From: Bacteroidota bacterium
Lineage (GTDB): Bacteria; Bacteroidota; Bacteroidia; NS11-12g; UBA9320
Assembly (NCBI GenBank): GCA_002746305.1
Contig: NVWV01000008.1
Span: 125,353 to 189,352, forward strand
Direction: 5' to 3'
Length of the DNA: 64,000 nt
Shown here: positions 12,030-51,518 of the stretch, piece after piece
How the letters are laid out: every line of letters starts with the position of its first letter
How positions within the stretch are numbered: position 1 is the stretch's first letter
The notes under the pieces: generated by a model
Told to the model about the DNA's origin: nothing
Database searches by the model: none
Seen by the model: only the letters and a program-made list of their open reading frames with translations
Position numbers and translations under genes: made by a program

Positions 12030-12404
12030 ATGTTAAATAACTCATGCATTCGACAACAAGCAGATATTACACAAATAAACCGTTGCAAAGAGACTGTCTC
12101 TACATTAAATGACACTTTTGATTATTTAACAAATGGGCTTTCACTCGTGGGAAACAACGTTAGATTGAAAATACTGTACCTCATCTTTGAAGAAAGGAGA
12201 CTTTGTGTTTGTGATTTAAGCGACATTCTTGGAATGAACATTTCCGCTGTCTCTCAACATTTGAGAAAAATGAAGGATAGAAACCTAATAGAAACTGAAA
12301 GGGAAGCACAAACCGTTTTTCACTCATTAACCCCTGAATATGAGCAATTACTAAATCCTTTTTTTAAGATTCTCGACAATAATAAAATTCTGGAAGTACT
12401 ATGA
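12030..12404 (+). CDS. ArsR/SmtB-family metalloregulator
   Basis: LKILYLIFEERRLCVCDLSDILGMNISAVSQHLRKMKDRNLI is an ArsR HTH with a CVC metal site in the alpha3 position. Confidence 0.6.
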   Translation: MLNNSCIRQQADITQINRCKETVSTLNDTFDYLTNGLSLVGNNVRLKILYLIFEERRLCVCDLSDILGMNISAVSQHLRKMKDRNLIETEREAQTVFHSLTPEYEQLLNPFFKILDNNKILEVL

Positions 12405-12994
12405 AGACTGAAAAAAAATTAATCGGAGCAGGTTTATTGACTGCAGCTGCAGCTTCGCTATGTTGTATAACACCTGTTATAGCACTGATAGCAGGAACAA
12501 GCGGCATTGCCTCAACGTTCTCTTGGCTTGAACCGTTCAGACCTTACTTAATCGGATTGACTATTTTGGTTCTTGGTTTTGCTTGGTATCAAAAATTAAA
12601 GCCAAAAAAAGAAATAGACTGCGATTGTGATACTGATGAAAAGCCGAAATTCATTCAATCAAAAATATTTTTAGGCTTTATAACCGTGTTCGCACTTGTT
12701 ATGTTGGCTTTTCCATACTATTCAAAAACATTCTATCCAAACACTGAAAACCAAACTAGGATAGTTGATGACTCAAACATTTCAACCATAGTATTTAAAA
12801 TAAGTGGAATGACCTGTACCAGTTGCGAACAACATGTGAATCACGAAGTTAATAAACTGAGTGGTATTGTAAGTTCAAAAGCATCCTATGAAATGGGAAA
12901 TGTGATTGTAGAATTAGACCGAACAAAGACCAGTATAACTGACATTAAGAAAGCAATTAACTCAACAGGATACACGGTAACTGACACCAAATAA
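12401..12994 (+). CDS. MerT-MerP fusion (mercuric/heavy-metal transport protein with C-terminal HMA domain)
   Basis: N-terminal AASLCCITPVIALIAG...LEPFRPYLIGLTILVLGFAWYQ parallels MerT (CC pair in TM1, LEPYRP). C-terminal GMTCTSCEQHVNHEV is an HMA (MerP-like) motif. ATGA-type overlap with ArsR. Confidence 0.6.
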   Translation: MKTEKKLIGAGLLTAAAASLCCITPVIALIAGTSGIASTFSWLEPFRPYLIGLTILVLGFAWYQKLKPKKEIDCDCDTDEKPKFIQSKIFLGFITVFALVMLAFPYYSKTFYPNTENQTRIVDDSNISTIVFKISGMTCTSCEQHVNHEVNKLSGIVSSKASYEMGNVIVELDRTKTSITDIKKAINSTGYTVTDTK

Positions 12995-12999
12995 GACTT

Positions 13000-13206
13000 A
13001 TGAAAATAACATTAAAGTCGGAAATTACTTGCCCTTCTTGCAAACATAAAAAAGTAGAAGAGATGCCTACAAATGCCTGTCAATTCTTTTACGAATGTGA
13101 CAACTGTAAAATAATTTTTAAACCAAAAGAGGGAGATTGTTGTGTCTATTGTTCTTATGGAACTGTTCCTTGTCCACCTATTCAAGAAAATAAAAATTGT
13201 TGCTAA
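13000..13206 (+). CDS. small cytoplasmic Cys-rich protein with GDCCVxCSYG motif (13 Cys in 68 aa)
   Basis: CPSC...CDNC...GDCCVYCSYGTVPC...NCC. I recall a GDCCVxC family named for mer contexts but cannot verify it. Confidence 0.45.
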   Translation: MKITLKSEITCPSCKHKKVEEMPTNACQFFYECDNCKIIFKPKEGDCCVYCSYGTVPCPPIQENKNCC

Positions 13207-13345
13207 ATGAATACTAAAACCAAAGATATAGCATGTCTTTAACCGCTTTTTATTGTTGGTGCTAATTCGAAAGAATAAAAATTGTCACACTCTCATTTAA
13301 ATTTTGTCTAAAGGGTATATAACAACTTTATAAACTCATAAAAAG

Positions 13346-13729
13346 ATGAAAAAAGCAACAACACAGACCATTAGTATTAACGCTGAATACCAAAAGGTAT
13401 TCAACTACATCTCAAATCCTTTAACTCAAAAGGAATGGGCAATTAACTTTATGAAAGACGTAAAAGAAACGGATAATGGATTTATAGCCATAACACCATT
13501 TGGAGAAATGCCATTAGAACTTAGGGCCAATGAACAAACAGGAACTATCGACATCATTCTAGGTGATGGCAAACCAATTCCAACTCGACTCATTAAAAAC
13601 CAAAATGGATGTGAATATATTTTTACATTGTTTCAACCCACAGGAATGCCTGACACTGCCTGGGAACGAGAAGGAATTCCTGGTTTAACGGAAGAATTAA
13701 AAGAACTTAAATCAATACTTGAACAATAA
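13346..13729 (+). CDS. hypothetical protein (SRPBCC-like guess)
   Basis: 127-aa ORF. No strong motif. Confidence 0.3.
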   Translation: MKKATTQTISINAEYQKVFNYISNPLTQKEWAINFMKDVKETDNGFIAITPFGEMPLELRANEQTGTIDIILGDGKPIPTRLIKNQNGCEYIFTLFQPTGMPDTAWEREGIPGLTEELKELKSILEQ

Positions 13730-13735
13730 ATAAAT

Positions 13736-14140
13736 ATGAAACAGTTCAGTTTAAGTTTAGGGCTTGGTTTTCTAGTCAACAATATTGTTGCAACAATGCT
13801 TGCAATGTTTGTTCTAAACCCGCTATTAAACCCAATGTTTGAGGGAATGATTCGAAAACAAGAAGAGGGGTTGGAAATGCCATCATTACTAAGCGGATAT
13901 TTTTTACTTACACTGTTTATGGTAATTGGTTACAGGCATTTTTCTTTAGATGCAAAATGGCTAAAAAAAGGCATAATTTGGGGTCTATTGGTTGGAGGAA
14001 TTGCTTTTATTGCAGGGCACTTAATTGTAGCTGGTTGGTCAAGCATGCCTCCGTTACCAATGCTAATTTCTGGAGTAATAGATACAGTAGCAACTTTGGC
14101 AACCGGAATACTTATTGCGTATTTTCATCGAAATGAATGA
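13736..14140 (+). CDS. hypothetical integral membrane protein (4 TM)
   Basis: Hydrophobic helices. Stop overlaps the sigma gene start (ATGAATGA). Confidence 0.4.
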   Translation: MKQFSLSLGLGFLVNNIVATMLAMFVLNPLLNPMFEGMIRKQEEGLEMPSLLSGYFLLTLFMVIGYRHFSLDAKWLKKGIIWGLLVGGIAFIAGHLIVAGWSSMPPLPMLISGVIDTVATLATGILIAYFHRNE

Positions 14141-14939
14141 TTTAGAAATAGTAGTAAAAAAGGCTGTAGAAGGAGATAAAAAAGCACTTGAAGAAGTTGT
14201 TCTTCAAATTCAAGACTTCATATATAACTTAGCAATCAGGATGCTGTGGCATCCTGATGATGCTAAAGACGCTACACAAGACATATTGATAAAGGTAATT
14301 ACTAATTTGAGCAAGTTCAACAATAAAAGTGCCTTCACTACCTGGGTTTACAGATTGTCTTCAAACAACCTAATTAACTTTAAAAAGAAAAAAAATACAG
14401 GCTCATTGAACTTTGATCAATATGAACTCCAATTAAATCAAGGCTTCTCCAACACAATAGAATATACAACCAACAAAGCAGAGCAGAGTTTATTAATTCA
14501 AGAAGCAAAAATTGGATGTTCCAATGCCATGCTACAATGTCTGAACAAAGAAAGTCGCATAACATATATCATAGGTGAAATACTAGAATTCAATGGTTAT
14601 GAAGGAGGAATAATACTAAATATTACACCCGAAAATTTTAGAAAAAAACTCTCACGGGCTCGGAAGAGTTTGCACAATTTTTTAAATAAAAATTGTGGAA
14701 TAGTCAATAAGCAAAATACATGCAGGTGTCACAAAAAAGTAGATGGTTCTATAAAAAATGGATTCATTCAACCCACTAATTTACTTTTTACAAAGAATAT
14801 AAAAGATGACAATCTTATTAATACAATTGAAAGTATTAGCCATGAAGTAAATTTATACCAAACAAACCCAAACTATACAGCTCCTGATATTTTCTTAAGT
14901 GAAGTTAGAAGAATCGTAACTACCGCCAAAAATGTATAA
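14133..14939 (+). CDS. ECF-type sigma-70 family factor with ~80-aa C-terminal extension containing CxxxxxxxxCRCH
   Basis: Region 2 (DATQDILIKVITNLSKF...FTTWVYRLSSNNLINF). Region 4 (FRKKLSRARKSLHNFL). Extension NKNCGIVNKQNTCRCHKK... Start set at ATG 14133. Confidence 0.5.
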   Translation: MNDLEIVVKKAVEGDKKALEEVVLQIQDFIYNLAIRMLWHPDDAKDATQDILIKVITNLSKFNNKSAFTTWVYRLSSNNLINFKKKKNTGSLNFDQYELQLNQGFSNTIEYTTNKAEQSLLIQEAKIGCSNAMLQCLNKESRITYIIGEILEFNGYEGGIILNITPENFRKKLSRARKSLHNFLNKNCGIVNKQNTCRCHKKVDGSIKNGFIQPTNLLFTKNIKDDNLINTIESISHEVNLYQTNPNYTAPDIFLSEVRRIVTTAKNV

Positions 14940-15010: not shown

Positions 15011-15745
15011 TTATACGAAGTGCTTACGAATGAATTGCTTTGAGACCCAAATTAAAAGGGTTATCAAAAACAGAAAACCAACTAACAAGAATGGAAGAGT
15101 TGCCGTATTATTTGCCGCACCATGAATCAATTGAAAAATCCAATGAGTAGGCAAAAATCCTAAGATATGCTTCAGATTTTCGGGAAGAAAAAAGGATGCA
15201 ATTGGCAAAAGAACAATCATATTAAAAGCTTTGATATAAACAATCCCTTGCATTCTATTTTCAACTATTGAATTAATCCCTAGTACGTATACAGGCACAA
15301 CTAAAGCTGTAAGAACAGATATAACCACGTTTGTCCCCCAATCAATAGTGTAAAATGACTGGAGCTTAATCAAAATAATATTGAGTACCACTGTTATTAG
15401 AAAGGGGATTAAGAGTCGCGACACTATATACTCCACCTTACTTAAAGGCACTATTCCATACACCTTGGCAACATCAGTCTCTTTCTCATCAATCAGAACC
15501 ATACTACTGATAAAACTAAACATTTGAGTGTTCTCAATTACCCCAACTATTAAAAAAAGAGACAGATAGGGCGTTAAAAATTCGTATTGGGCTACCATGA
15601 TTGGTAGAAACCAGATAAATACAGCAAACAAGACCAGAGGCATTGCTAAAAATACTCTTAACGATGAATCCCTAAAAATTAGTTTAAAATCTGATATGGC
15701 AAGTGTTATTATTTTCTTGTTCATGGAGTTTTCCTTTATTGGCAA
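15011..15745 (-). CDS. ABC-2 type transporter permease
   Basis: 6 TM. Operon with the ATPase at 16428. Confidence 0.5.
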   Translation of the reverse strand: MPIKENSMNKKIITLAISDFKLIFRDSSLRVFLAMPLVLFAVFIWFLPIMVAQYEFLTPYLSLFLIVGVIENTQMFSFISSMVLIDEKETDVAKVYGIVPLSKVEYIVSRLLIPFLITVVLNIILIKLQSFYTIDWGTNVVISVLTALVVPVYVLGINSIVENRMQGIVYIKAFNMIVLLPIASFFLPENLKHILGFLPTHWIFQLIHGAANNTATLPFLLVGFLFLITLLIWVSKQFIRKHFV

Positions 15746-16431
15746 ATCACCTTTCTTTTGAATAATTTATAGGCCAAACTATAAAATAGCGTAATCCAAA
15801 AAAAGATGGAAATATAAGTGGCCCATAAGTTAATTTCCGTTCCACTAATCCCATTGTCTATTAAATTGATACTACCTTGAGCTGGGAATACATACTTCAA
15901 TAATCCCATATCAAAAACTCCCAAATATTGCAATAATGGAACGTTAATAAATGTTAAAAAAACAGGAATGGATATCATGGCAAACTTCAAAAATTCGGAA
16001 GCGAAGGTGAGCATGATTAGACCTAAAAGAGCTGATAAAAGGCAAATACCTAAAGTTCCTATGGCGTAATTAATAATATCAAAATCGAAACCTTTGACAA
16101 AAAAAGCAAGACCCAGAGCACAAACTATTCCAACAACAGAAAGAGCCATTACTTTGGAAATGATGTAATGATGTAAATTAATGGGGGTAGTAAATATTGC
16201 AGGCAATATTTCATGTTTTATTTCAGTATAAATGGCTAATGCTATAAAGAAATAACCAATTACTGAAGGGTCATTTAAAACAATTGAAATCAGTACTACA
16301 TCCAAGCTACCTACATCCTTTATTAAAAATAAGATGACGCCATAAATCACAGTAACGCCAATACTGATATTGATAATATTATTTTTATGAAGTAACATCA
16401 ACTGCCACTTTAGTTGTGAAAGTATCTTCAT
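15736..16431 (-). CDS. ABC-2 type transporter permease
   Basis: 6 TM. Overlaps neighbours by 10 and 4 nt. Confidence 0.5.
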   Translation of the reverse strand: MKILSQLKWQLMLLHKNNIINISIGVTVIYGVILFLIKDVGSLDVVLISIVLNDPSVIGYFFIALAIYTEIKHEILPAIFTTPINLHHYIISKVMALSVVGIVCALGLAFFVKGFDFDIINYAIGTLGICLLSALLGLIMLTFASEFLKFAMISIPVFLTFINVPLLQYLGVFDMGLLKYVFPAQGSINLIDNGISGTEINLWATYISIFFWITLFYSLAYKLFKRKVICQ

Positions 16432-17279
16432 ATTTTCAAGGTTTTACCGGTAACATTAATGAACACTTCTTCCAAACTGGCTTCCAAAGTGTGAATCCGA
16501 TTTATTTCACCTTTTTTTAAGAAATTGATAAAATCAGCATTTTCTCCCAAGTCTTTCAAAGAGAACTCGTCACTCTCTCCATTCTTCAATTCCACATTTA
16601 CGGCTTCTTTACCATATTTAGTTTTCAGAGCTTTGGGCGTATCCGTTATTTTAAGTTCACCATCTACAATGAAAGAAACCCTATCACATAGCTCATCTGC
16701 CGTATTCATATTATGGGTTGTGATAAAAATCGTCTTCCCCGATTTCTTTAAATCCAAAATATGCTGCTTCATTTTATGTCCATTTACTGGATCTAATCCT
16801 GCAGTAGGTTCATCAAAAAATAAAATTGCAGGGTCGTGTTGAATGGCTCTAATAAAATTCAATCTCATTTTCATCCCCTTTGAATATGCCTCGACTGGTT
16901 TATTCATGTCATCTTCAAGTCCAACCATTTCAAATAATTTTAAAACGTCTCTACCGGAATTCTTAGGATAGAAAGAAGCGAATAAATCTAAATTTTCTCT
17001 CCCAGATAGTTTCAAATAATGGTTTGGCAACTCAAATCCGACTCCTATTTTTTCATAAAAAGAACTATCCCAAAGGTTCAAATCTTTTCCTTCTATTTCT
17101 ACTTTCCCCTGATAACCCGTTAATATTTTATAAAGCACCTTCTGGGCTGTACTTTTTCCAGCTCCTGAGGGTCCCAAAAATCCAAACACCTCACCCGATT
17201 GAATCTCAAAACTCAATCCTTTTAGAGTTGGAGAGTCATTCTTTGGATATTGAAATATCAAATCTTCTACTCGTATCAT
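16428..17279 (-). CDS. ABC transporter ATP-binding protein
   Basis: Walker A GPSGAGKST. Signature YSKGMKMRLNF. Walker B ILFFDEPTAGLD. H-loop ITTHNM. Confidence 0.85.
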   Translation of the reverse strand: MIRVEDLIFQYPKNDSPTLKGLSFEIQSGEVFGFLGPSGAGKSTAQKVLYKILTGYQGKVEIEGKDLNLWDSSFYEKIGVGFELPNHYLKLSGRENLDLFASFYPKNSGRDVLKLFEMVGLEDDMNKPVEAYSKGMKMRLNFIRAIQHDPAILFFDEPTAGLDPVNGHKMKQHILDLKKSGKTIFITTHNMNTADELCDRVSFIVDGELKITDTPKALKTKYGKEAVNVELKNGESDEFSLKDLGENADFINFLKKGEINRIHTLEASLEEVFINVTGKTLKI

Positions 17280-17282
17280 AGT

Positions 17283-17963
17283 TTATAATTCTTTGTCAAA
17301 TGCCCTTTTTAAGAGTTGGATATAATCATCGACTGTCTTTAATAGTACATCCACCTTCCCTTGATAAACAGGGGTGTTATTTTTTATACTCTCTTTTGGA
17401 TTGATTTCCCCAAAAACTTGCATTTGTTCTTGAATTGCAACCCCAGACTTATAGAGTAAAAAGCCCATAGTCTTAATCGGTAAATCGGCCCTGAATAAGC
17501 CTAATTTAATTTCATGTTCTATCATTTTTTCAAAACCTGCAACAGACTGATTTAACAAATCATCGTATAGGCTTTTGATAGACGGAGAATTAAGGCTGCT
17601 CACTAAATTGTGTAAAAAGTGACTTTGCAATGGGTTTTCTAAATCGAATTTTATCCCTTCGGAGTATAACAATCGGAAAAAGACCCAAAAATCAGAACAA
17701 TCCTCCCTTTTCAAATCCTTAAAATATTTCATCTTGGTACTCGTGCATTCATTTATCAAATACATAAACAAATCCAATTTATCATCAAAATATTGATAGA
17801 TACTTCCTTTAGCAATACCTAATGATTTAACAACAGAGGTTAGAGAAGCGTCATCAAAAGTATGCGTTGCAAACTCCTTTAAAAAGGCGTCTACTAGTAT
17901 CTTCTTCTTGTCTTCTTTTAGATTGGTGAAAGTTATTTTAGGCATTTGTGACTTTACGGTCAC
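17283..17963 (-). CDS. TetR/AcrR family transcriptional regulator
   Basis: N-terminal HTH FATHTFDDASLTSVVKSLGIAKGSIYQYF. Located immediately upstream of the ABC operon. Confidence 0.7.
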   Translation of the reverse strand: MTVKSQMPKITFTNLKEDKKKILVDAFLKEFATHTFDDASLTSVVKSLGIAKGSIYQYFDDKLDLFMYLINECTSTKMKYFKDLKREDCSDFWVFFRLLYSEGIKFDLENPLQSHFLHNLVSSLNSPSIKSLYDDLLNQSVAGFEKMIEHEIKLGLFRADLPIKTMGFLLYKSGVAIQEQMQVFGEINPKESIKNNTPVYQGKVDVLLKTVDDYIQLLKRAFDKEL

Positions 17964-50636: not shown

Positions 50637-51518
50637 TTAATTGTATAAGTTATCCGAATCTAAATTTAAATATTTTCTAGTCGCTAAGTGTGTTGAAACA
50701 TATATCACAACCGAGCCACCAATTAGGAGCAAAAATAACATCAAAATGTATTGATACCAGTTTTCTGTAAAATGATACCCTATTGCTCTCATATTTAAGT
50801 CCATAGATGCATTAAGCCACGAAAAAAACATCCAGATTGTACTTACAAGTAACAGCACCCCAATGACAAAACTAATCAAGGTCCAAAACAATGCCTTTCT
50901 TTTATATGGCTTCATAATAAACTTTTCAGTCGCACCTATTAACTGTTGATTCCTTATTAAAAATCGATCAGAATAAATCAGAATCCGGATAGTATTAGAC
51001 ATAAGTACTGCTGCTATTGAGACCAATATAATACTCAATGCAATTAACCATAGACTAATTGCACGTCTATTTTCATCTATTTGTTGAAATACATTTCTAG
51101 GATAGCTCACTTCCAATATCCCCTTACCTCCAGCAAGTTCTCGCTCAAGTCGCATAAGACTTACTTCATCAGTGAACTCCTGGTTCAACGTAATTTCCAA
51201 GCTTGCGGGAAGAGGATTATCACCTAAAACTTCTACAAAATCCTCACCAATTTCATTCTTGAAATTAAAAACAGCATCTTCACTACTTACAAATTTTCCC
51301 TCATTAACAAATGGAAGTCTTTGGATACTATCGCTGATACTATGAGCCTGTTTATCCTGTAAACCAATATCAAAAAAAACCGTTACCTGAAGGTTTTCTT
51401 TGATGTGATTATTGAGTTGAGTGGCATTGATAATAAGAACCCCTAGTAAGCCAAGCAAGAAAATTACCAACGAAAGTGTAGCAATAATTGTAAAACCTCC
51501 TGGCTTAGTCCCGCTCAT
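50637..51518 (-). CDS. ftsX: cell division protein FtsX-like permease
   Basis: N-terminal TM then LQVTVFFD (FtsX itvYL-like), a periplasmic domain and 3 C-terminal TM. No ftsE adjacent. Confidence 0.55.
   Translation of the reverse strand: MSGTKPGGFTIIATLSLVIFLLGLLGVLIINATQLNNHIKENLQVTVFFDIGLQDKQAHSISDSIQRLPFVNEGKFVSSEDAVFNFKNEIGEDFVEVLGDNPLPASLEITLNQEFTDEVSLMRLERELAGGKGILEVSYPRNVFQQIDENRRAISLWLIALSIILVSIAAVLMSNTIRILIYSDRFLIRNQQLIGATEKFIMKPYKRKALFWTLISFVIGVLLLVSTIWMFFSWLNASMDLNMRAIGYHFTENWYQYILMLFLLLIGGSVVIYVSTHLATRKYLNLDSDNLYN

Follow-up and report, generated by a model that had tools for sequence, protein, structure and literature searches.

What is the role of the cysteine-containing C-terminal extension of an extracytoplasmic function (ECF) sigma factor that is encoded beside a mer-like gene cluster and apart from any classical anti-sigma factor? 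The question is raised by positions 13346-14939 (+ strand) of a 64,000-nucleotide stretch from a Bacteroidota bacterium (lineage UBA9320; assembly GCA_002746305.1, contig NVWV01000008.1, positions 125,353-189,352), hereafter the window, by which we mean the whole stretch. Three closely packed genes at these positions encode a 127-residue protein, a 134-residue protein with four predicted transmembrane segments (4-TM) and the sigma factor itself. An earlier note, made from the letters of the window alone, had proposed a CorE-like sigma factor acting in a metal-responsive circuit with the nearby MerTP operon. Our analyses uphold the general kind of regulator proposed there and speak against membership in the CorE group as well as against a link to mercury. 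The sigma factor is part of a large family, spread over many phyla and experimentally uncharacterised, in which five cysteines, two in the sigma4 domain and three in the tail, are practically invariant. We cautiously favour a reading in which these cysteines form an on-board sensor centre that works without an anti-sigma factor, the sigma factor controlling mainly its own small operon.

A conserved extension and five nearly invariant cysteines

A word-indexed search retrieved 447 relatives of the sigma factor, the best 120 of which cover 96-100% of the query with identities down to 45%, and the extension is full-length in all the relatives listed, down to 35-45% identity. The earlier note had staked its proposal on conservation of the extension in orthologs, and the extension is indeed found at full length in more than 350 relatives. 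A scan using one genome per species yielded 171 relatives, from which 80 loci were kept for the counts of gene context, cysteines and promoters given below. Residues C129 and C136 in sigma4, together with C188, C197 and C199 in the extension, are invariant in these loci (80/80). Similarly, 351 of 354 full-length relatives have C188, C197 and C199, and among these C129 occurs in 351 and C136 in 347. Residues G189, P214, L217, F219, P246 and P251 are likewise invariant or almost so. The tail cysteines form the motif C-G-x2-N-x2-N-x-C-R-C.

The identity of the protein as a sigma factor is supported by several methods. Pfam recognises its Sigma70_r2 domain at 9e-11, while in NCBIfam it is assigned only to the ECF superfamily model TIGR02937 (47.8 bits, the cut-off being 42.9), no equivalog model coming near its cut-off in that scan. 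Structure searches with two AlphaFold2 models matched exclusively ECF sigma factors (SigW, AlgU, SigK, SigH and sigma-E), and the protein consists of sigma2 and sigma4 only, without region 1 or 3, as in ECF (group 4) factors of the sigma-70 family. The models were run with an alignment of 111 sequences and mutually agree, with a mean predicted local distance difference test (pLDDT) score of 82-83 (83.4 for one). The modelled sigma4 comprises helices at residues 115-136, 139-150, 155-162 and 166-187, the last being the recognition helix, and NKNCGIVNKQNTCRCHKK (residues 185-202) lies immediately past it. pLDDT exceeds 90 over residues 181-210, which span the cysteine knuckle and the first helix and are continuous with the recognition helix, and falls to 50-75 over residues 221-268; the tail is therefore best described as a rigid cysteine knuckle and helix followed by a less constrained distal helical pair. 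The architecture announced by the earlier note, regions 2 and 4 followed by a cysteine-containing extension of about 80 residues, is thereby borne out by Pfam, the models and conservation.

The extension itself matched nothing in Pfam (at E values up to 10), NCBIfam or the PDB, and a profile built from the extension only gave mere noise against PDB sequences. Nothing matched it in a PADLOC scan of the extension and neighbouring genes. The extension lacks the H-x3-C-x2-C motif that marks a fused zinc-binding anti-sigma (ZAS) domain, and it gave no match to zf-HC2 or any other anti-sigma model in Pfam. A mean-field direct coupling analysis of 351 sequences for contacts between tail and core returned an output dominated by gap artefacts at termini and indels.

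Distribution of the family

Relatives were found in at least eight phyla (Bacteroidota, Planctomycetota, Calditrichota, Myxococcota, Chloroflexota, Bacillota, Acidobacteriota and Gemmatimonadota). The 80 kept loci are mostly from Bacteroidota and also represent Scalindua, Calditrichia, Myxococcales, Chloroflexia/Anaerolineales, Bacillota, Acidobacteria and Gemmatimonadales. Another search, started from a high-GC member, added more than 1,130 further proteins, and an exhaustive HMMER search with the extension-only profile gave 642 clusters at 50% identity. The HMMER matches that were listed or inspected are sigma factors of 260-300 residues carrying the C-terminal domain, or fragments of them, with the exception of one protein (P0157) in which the tail is fused to an alcohol-dehydrogenase-like N-terminus and which looks chimeric. 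Matches of about 95 residues, which might have represented a stand-alone tail domain, all begin with M-x3-CG where inspected; we treated them as fragmentary gene calls, because this start corresponds to an internal methionine of the FMxxxCG motif of full-length relatives.

Homologues are also borne on plasmids, namely pGui2 of the pathogen Leptospira interrogans, a megaplasmid of Enterococcus raffinosus and pRUNSL01 of Runella slithyformis (L081, L082 and L083, respectively). A transcriptome paper on Leptospira in which DUF1761 and a sigma factor are mentioned was considered and set aside, the loci being unrelated. Many of the family members belong to flavobacteria that live in the sea in association with algae and encounter halogenated metabolites. 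The family is thus large (642 clusters at 50% identity, over 1,100 proteins and at least eight phyla), and there is no Pfam model for its tail.

A family-specific predicted promoter

Aligned upstream regions revealed a consensus in front of the first gene of the operons, (T)GTCACAC-N14/15-(T)GTCTAA, with GTCACA as the -35-like and GTCTAA as the -10-like element. GTCACA is conserved in 97-100% of the sites and the preceding T in 75%. In 70 of the 80 loci the form GTCAC-N16-18-GTCTAA occurs on the same strand and no more than 1.1 kb upstream, and there are just three other matches in 852 kb. In the window the single perfect match, for which the chance expectation is 0.03, is at 13284-13311, 35 nt 5' of the gene for the 127-residue protein. 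The sole match with one mismatch (50995-51023, - strand) was treated as due to chance because it falls inside an FtsX-like gene. These positions lead us to infer autoregulation of the sigma factor, with its own operon as the local regulon.

Two of the three extra matches in the related loci fit the motif as the cognate promoter. One of them is a second copy in a Labilibaculum locus (L051, 6850-8073), situated between the sigma factor gene and a downstream set that encodes a 4-TM protein (TM147), a protein with a TfoX N-terminal domain and a DsrE-like protein; its position suggests that these genes may be direct targets of the sigma factor. Another, in a Ferruginibacter metagenome-assembled genome (L017), precedes an ABM-like gene and a paralogous sigma factor with a cysteine tail, whereas the third (L026) is the operon's own promoter, in front of a hydrolase gene. 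The second sigma factor of the Ferruginibacter genome (10827-12427, 290 residues, subtype PCRCPKKTKGF) stands behind the ABM-like gene, and the same genome carries an operon of the window type; therefore, paralogues with overlapping promoter specificity would coexist in one genome. In the Runella plasmid locus, a YdhR/ABM-like gene stands upstream of the sigma factor gene and is itself preceded by a variant of the motif (GTAACAC-N15-GGTCTAA), and upstream of the copy on pGui2 of Leptospira interrogans no motif was found.

Partner genes differ between branches

Every open reading frame (ORF) within 3.5 kb of the sigma factor gene was clustered across the 80 loci. No neighbour turned out to be universal, the tail being the sole constant element, and no recognisable anti-sigma domain was found in any neighbour in the 80 loci or in the window, in agreement with what the earlier note had said of this locus; cysteine-extension ECF factors working without an anti-sigma are, besides, a known kind (PMC6851896, PMC7826278).

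Two layouts account for many of the loci. In the layout of the window, a gene for an SRPBCC-like protein of 127 residues lies directly 5' of the sigma factor gene; it was found in 24-25 of the 80 loci, including those of Acidobacteria, Gemmatimonadales and Anaerolineales, and in 11 loci, all of this layout, a 4-TM gene is inserted between the two. The SRPBCC-like protein has a weak Pfam match to Polyketide_cyc2 (0.023), and the profile of its family matches PDB entry 2qpv, the uncharacterised protein Atu1531, at 2.6e-14. The 4-TM protein of the window resembles DUF1761 below the Pfam cut-off (0.005) and has no soluble domain of anti-sigma type. In the second layout the sigma factor gene comes first and is followed by a 147-residue 4-TM protein in 37 loci and, in 28 loci, by a 138-residue protein with an MGMT-type DNA-binding domain (PF01035, 1.4e-5), an Atl/MGMT-like protein without an active-site cysteine (PFWRV). 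Homology between the upstream 4-TM protein of the first layout and the downstream 147-residue membrane protein of the second was rejected (hhalign probability 0.2%). In minor layouts an alpha/beta hydrolase or an ABM/YdhR-like protein is encoded upstream of the sigma factor gene, or a free-standing SnoaL protein, a DinB protein or a membrane protein of about 100 residues downstream. By eye the hydrolase is haloalkane-dehalogenase-like, and Pfam confirmed the generic fold only. One metagenomic protein of 427 residues (P0374) carries, in frame and N-terminal to a family sigma factor, a domain of the same SRPBCC-like family as the 127-residue protein of the window; the fusion may be genuine or due to a lost stop codon.

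The neighbouring mer-like cluster

The mer-like cluster precedes the operon on the same strand (12030-13206) and consists of an ArsR/SmtB regulator (12030-12404), a MerTP fusion (12401-12994; NF033556, 299 bits) and a protein with a GDCCVxC domain (13000-13206; NF041374). A crude regular-expression search of the 64-kb window found no MerA-type redox-active-site motif, so the cluster looks restricted to transport and binding. With the ends of MerTP and of the GDCCVxC gene at 12994 and 13206, respectively, the sigma factor gene starts 0.93-1.14 kb downstream of both, as the earlier note had said in giving a distance of about 1 kb, and the overlap that it described between the sigma factor gene and the 4-TM gene upstream was found as well (ATG at 14133, stop codon at 14138-14140).

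Among the 80 related loci, tblastn gave one weak match each for MerTP and ArsR and none for the GDCCVxC protein, and a motif scan found an HMA site in one locus and a P-type ATPase signature in one locus. This rarity of mer and metal genes shows the ArsR-MerTP-GDCCVxC adjacency to be peculiar to this genome, and it is incidental as far as the sigma factor operon is concerned. Furthermore, a motif scan of the window found no family promoter ahead of the mer operon, which has its own ArsR/SmtB regulator. These observations speak against the metal-responsive circuit with MerTP envisaged in the earlier note, and proximity to these genes is no ground for annotating the sigma factor as a mercury or metal regulator.

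Proposed mechanism and alternative explanations

If the reading that we favour is correct, C129 and C136 of sigma4 and C188, C197 and C199 of the tail would jointly ligate a metal ion, for which zinc is the simplest assumption, or a cluster. This centre would staple the knuckle and helix, some 35 residues, onto sigma4, and the two distal tail helices would hang from it. From what is generally known of sigma4 structure, we presume that such a tie would lie beside the beta-flap-binding surface and close to the helix that binds the -35 element. Depending on whether it is metallated, or on whether it is reduced as opposed to oxidised or alkylated, the centre could then gate the engagement of sigma4 with both core RNA polymerase and the -35 element, and the sigma factor would act as a one-protein cytoplasmic sensor without an anti-sigma. 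When active it would transcribe mainly its own operon, the adjacent small proteins being an output that differs between sub-branches. Precedents for on-board cysteine sensors in ECF factors are CorE and CorE2 (PMC3107203, PMC6851896) and OrbS of Burkholderia cenocepacia, and the gating suggested here follows the activation by metal proposed for CorE and the impairment of core binding by Fe(II) in OrbS (PMC9023288).

As to the signal, the lack of metal genes in the conserved contexts argues against metal homeostasis, and the partner folds (SRPBCC, SnoaL, DinB, ABM, alpha/beta hydrolase, Atl-like and DsrE) point loosely to small-molecule, redox or electrophile stress. These same partners, the alkyltransferase-like protein, the alpha/beta hydrolase, DinB, SnoaL, ABM, DsrE and SRPBCC, prompted the more specific idea that the five-cysteine centre is a reactive thiolate/zinc site that would sense electrophiles or alkylating agents by direct modification, with a different small module for detoxification or repair switched on in each branch. 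An analogue would be the methyl-accepting Cys4-zinc site of Ada, and we regard this idea as a long shot.

Three points weigh against the on-board sensor reading. The absolute invariance of the cysteines across branches with very different partners fits a structural zinc site equally well. The promoter at 13284-13311 is a sequence motif and, as such, a predicted one. Finally, the six genes from ArsR through the sigma factor share one orientation, and a search of the 139 nt that separate the mer cluster from the sigma factor operon gave no terminator, so that transcription from the mer promoter might read through into the operon in this genome.

Among the alternatives, a purely structural zinc site would merely hold the tail on sigma4, and regulation would occur through the distal helices together with a non-classical anti-sigma or co-sensor encoded in the operon, or be purely transcriptional. 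SRPBCC, SnoaL, DinB and DUF2461 proteins and small membrane proteins would be the candidate partners, in what amounts to a 'split' version of the fused SnoaL of ECF41. The cysteines indeed stay invariant across loci with different partner genes, most of the partners have small ligand-binding folds, free-standing SnoaL among them, and the distal tail shows lower conservation and lower model confidence, as would be expected of a partner-binding segment. Furthermore, the promoter resembles the TGTCACA-n16-CGTC signature of ECF41 and the operon layout matches that of ECF41 loci (PMC3426412), and P0374 joins an SRPBCC-like domain to a sigma factor, although this fusion is a single metagenomic gene call that could reflect a lost stop codon. 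What makes this explanation rather unlikely in our view is that the partners are non-homologous between branches and missing from some loci, so that none can be a universal regulator, and that the neighbours of ECF41 factors proved to be targets and not regulators (PMC3426412).

Less credit still is due to ligation of an iron-sulfur cluster, with the sigma factor as a sensor of oxygen, nitric oxide or iron. Four to five invariant cysteines drawn from two segments are compatible with cluster ligation, and the authors of a study of OrbS were unable to exclude a cluster in the Cys-rich tail of that factor (PMC9023288). Yet the spacing of the cysteines matches no cluster-binding motif that we could name, no iron-sulfur assembly or iron genes are conserved among the recurrent neighbours in the 80 loci, and the family occurs in aerobes and anaerobes alike, with no obvious pattern. 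The explanation that the earlier note had preferred, a CorE-like factor whose cysteine tail binds a toxic metal (mercury, cadmium, zinc or copper) in a circuit with the MerTP operon, appears equally improbable. It can draw on the combination of a cysteine tail and no anti-sigma, as in CorE and CorE2 (PMC6851896), on the resemblance of C-x8-C-x-C to the C184..C192-x-C194 of the CorE tail (PMC3107203), and on the position of the operon 140 bp 3' of ArsR-MerTP-GDCCVxC, with no terminator detected between them. Against it stand the missing CxC of the linker, a tail of about 80 residues with three cysteines instead of 21-50 residues with at least four, the mer and metal genes that are rare or absent around the relatives, and the mer operon's own regulator and lack of a family promoter. 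Moreover, the cysteine pattern is invariant in the window family, whereas it varies among CorE-like factors of different metal specificity.

ECF sigma factors that sense by means of a fused tail are few, and to our knowledge only CorE/CorE2, OrbS, ECF41 and ECF42 have been studied. The family described here offers several handles, namely a five-cysteine centre that spans sigma4 and the tail, a sharply defined predicted cognate promoter and a predicted regulon of one operon, which would make it a convenient model and possibly an orthogonal synthetic switch.

Gene calls and operon layout

The positions of the features in the window are collected in Table 1. The ORF of the sigma factor first opens at a TTG (14115), and the conserved N-terminus (MNDLE...) begins at the ATG at 14133, a start that creates the overlap ATGAATGA with the stop codon of the 4-TM gene. 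The three genes probably form one operon driven by its own family-specific promoter, as the predicted site in front of the first gene suggests.

Table 1. Positions, in the window, of the sigma factor operon and of the parts of the sigma factor (residues counted from the ATG at 14133)
Feature	Position	Strand	Basis
Predicted sigma-specific promoter, GTCACAC-N14-TTGTCTAA	13284..13311	+	Conserved motif upstream of operon
SRPBCC-like (START/Bet v 1-type) cytoplasmic protein, 127 aa, operon gene 1	13346..13729	+	Weak Pfam match and family-profile PDB match
4-TM protein, 134 aa, weak DUF1761 similarity	13736..14140	+	Four predicted transmembrane/hydrophobic segments
ECF (group 4) sigma factor, 268 aa and stop codon (14937-14939)	14133..14939	+	Pfam, NCBIfam, structure searches
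Sigma2 domain, ~residues 25-88	14205..14396	+	Pfam PF04542 (residues 31-94 of the TTG-started ORF)
Sigma4 domain, ~residues 115-187, four helices	14475..14693	+	AlphaFold2 helices and alignment to SigW region 4
C129 and C136, within IGCSNAMLQCL, first sigma4 helix	14517-14519 and 14538-14540	+	Alignments of relatives
C-terminal extension, residues 186-268, ~80 aa	14688..14936	+	Conservation and AlphaFold2
Extension, part one, residues 188-220: Cys knuckle C188-G-x7-C197-R-C199, short helix 199-208, P214..L217-L-F219 motif	14694-14729 (knuckle)		
Extension, part two: less conserved helices 226-243 and 252-267, invariant P246 and P251			

Downstream, and convergent with the sigma factor gene, a set of genes on the - strand (15011-17963) encodes a TetR-family regulator, an ABC ATPase and two membrane proteins, one of them a permease of the FLQE3 type (fluoroquinolone-export family) and the other without a Pfam match. 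The adjacency of this set to the sigma factor gene is not conserved in relatives.

Comparison with known systems

CorE and CorE2 of Myxococcus xanthus, formerly ECF44 and now placed within ECF238, share with the window family the lack of an anti-sigma, cysteines both upstream of or within sigma4 and in the tail, a CxC in the tail and, in the case of CorE, the proposed logic of a metal centre between core and tail that gates activity. Two features define the CorE-like (ECF44) factors, namely a CxC that is strictly conserved between sigma2 and sigma4 (PMC6851896) and a tail of 21-50 residues with at least four conserved cysteines, those of CorE being C181, C184, C192 and C194 (PMC3107203, PMC6851896). 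Contrary to the CorE-like architecture assigned by the earlier note, the window family has no CxC before residue 197 and instead has an invariant C129-x6-C136 in the first helix of sigma4, and its tail is about twice as long, has two extra helices and carries three cysteines (C-x8-C-x-C). CorE-like genes are mostly found in metal contexts and corE is only partly autoregulated (PMC6851896), and the -35 element of CorE contains AAC (PMC3107203); the window family, unlike them, has no conserved metal-homeostasis neighbours, a clear, predicted self-promoter and GTCACA at -35.

OrbS, an iron-starvation ECF factor with an on-board Fe(II) sensor, also has its cysteine cluster directly after region 4.2, where it controls the binding of core RNA polymerase without an anti-sigma (PMC9023288). 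The likeness of the window family to OrbS lies in the position of the cysteines, a similar control being conjectural here. OrbS differs in its C-x2-C-x3-C-x5-C motif, its ECF243 membership, its siderophore context and the lack of the cysteine pair at the N-terminal side of sigma4.

In promoter and operon layout the window family resembles ECF41 (SigJ, Ecf41Bli), whose members carry a fused SnoaL-like extension. The ECF41 signature is TGTCACA-n16(+/-1)-CGTC, the -35 element of which was described as group-specific, and the adjacent genes proved to be targets and not regulators (PMC3426412). The window family has the same -35 element, GTCACA, with GTCTAA against CGTC at -10, a promoter-bearing target gene that is often upstream in the same operon, an apparent regulon of one operon and no anti-sigma. 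Its extension, in contrast, is not SnoaL-like, and among solved structures SigW and AlgU resemble its core sequence more closely than SigJ does. The recurrent neighbours included no recognised carboxymuconolactone decarboxylase, oxidoreductase or epimerase, a short-chain dehydrogenase-looking cluster among them (6/80 loci) being left unannotated. The similarity of the promoters does not establish membership in ECF41.

The reclassification of ECF factors in 2021 introduced two groups with 'Cys-rich C-terminal extensions', ECF287 from Actinobacteria and ECF288 from Firmicutes (PMC7826278). Of the known groups, ECF288 stands nearest to the window sigma factor. It is 100% Firmicutes, has a CGxxGxGxCxC motif and a DUF2461 gene in position +1, and includes no experimentally characterised member (Casas-Pastor et al. 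2021, PMC7826278); a literature search turned up no experimental study of ECF288 or of any relative. The sigma factor of the Enterococcus raffinosus megaplasmid, found by tblastn of plasmids, is 35% identical to that of the window over 96% of the query, tail included, and a DUF2461 gene (Pfam 5.7e-50) lies directly 3' of its gene. It keeps C129, C136, C188, C197 and C199, its tail motif is CGVAGGSCEC, and GTCACAC-N14-TTGTCTAA is found 21 nt 5' of its start. The Enterococcus protein was assigned to ECF288 by context and motif, and not by the ECF Hub models. The window branch thus shares with this DUF2461-linked factor homology over its full length, the five cysteines, the promoter and the lack of an anti-sigma. 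It differs in having CGxxNxxNxCRC, without the inner glycines (C-x8-C-x-C as against C-x7-C-x-C), in the lack of DUF2461, for which tblastn with the Enterococcus protein found no match in the 80 loci or the window, and in its distribution, mainly in Bacteroidota and in about seven other phyla. Because the Enterococcus homologue keeps the full-length alignment, the five cysteines and the promoter, we regard the window sigma factor, on sequence grounds, as a member of a superfamily that includes ECF288 and in which it occupies a different branch.

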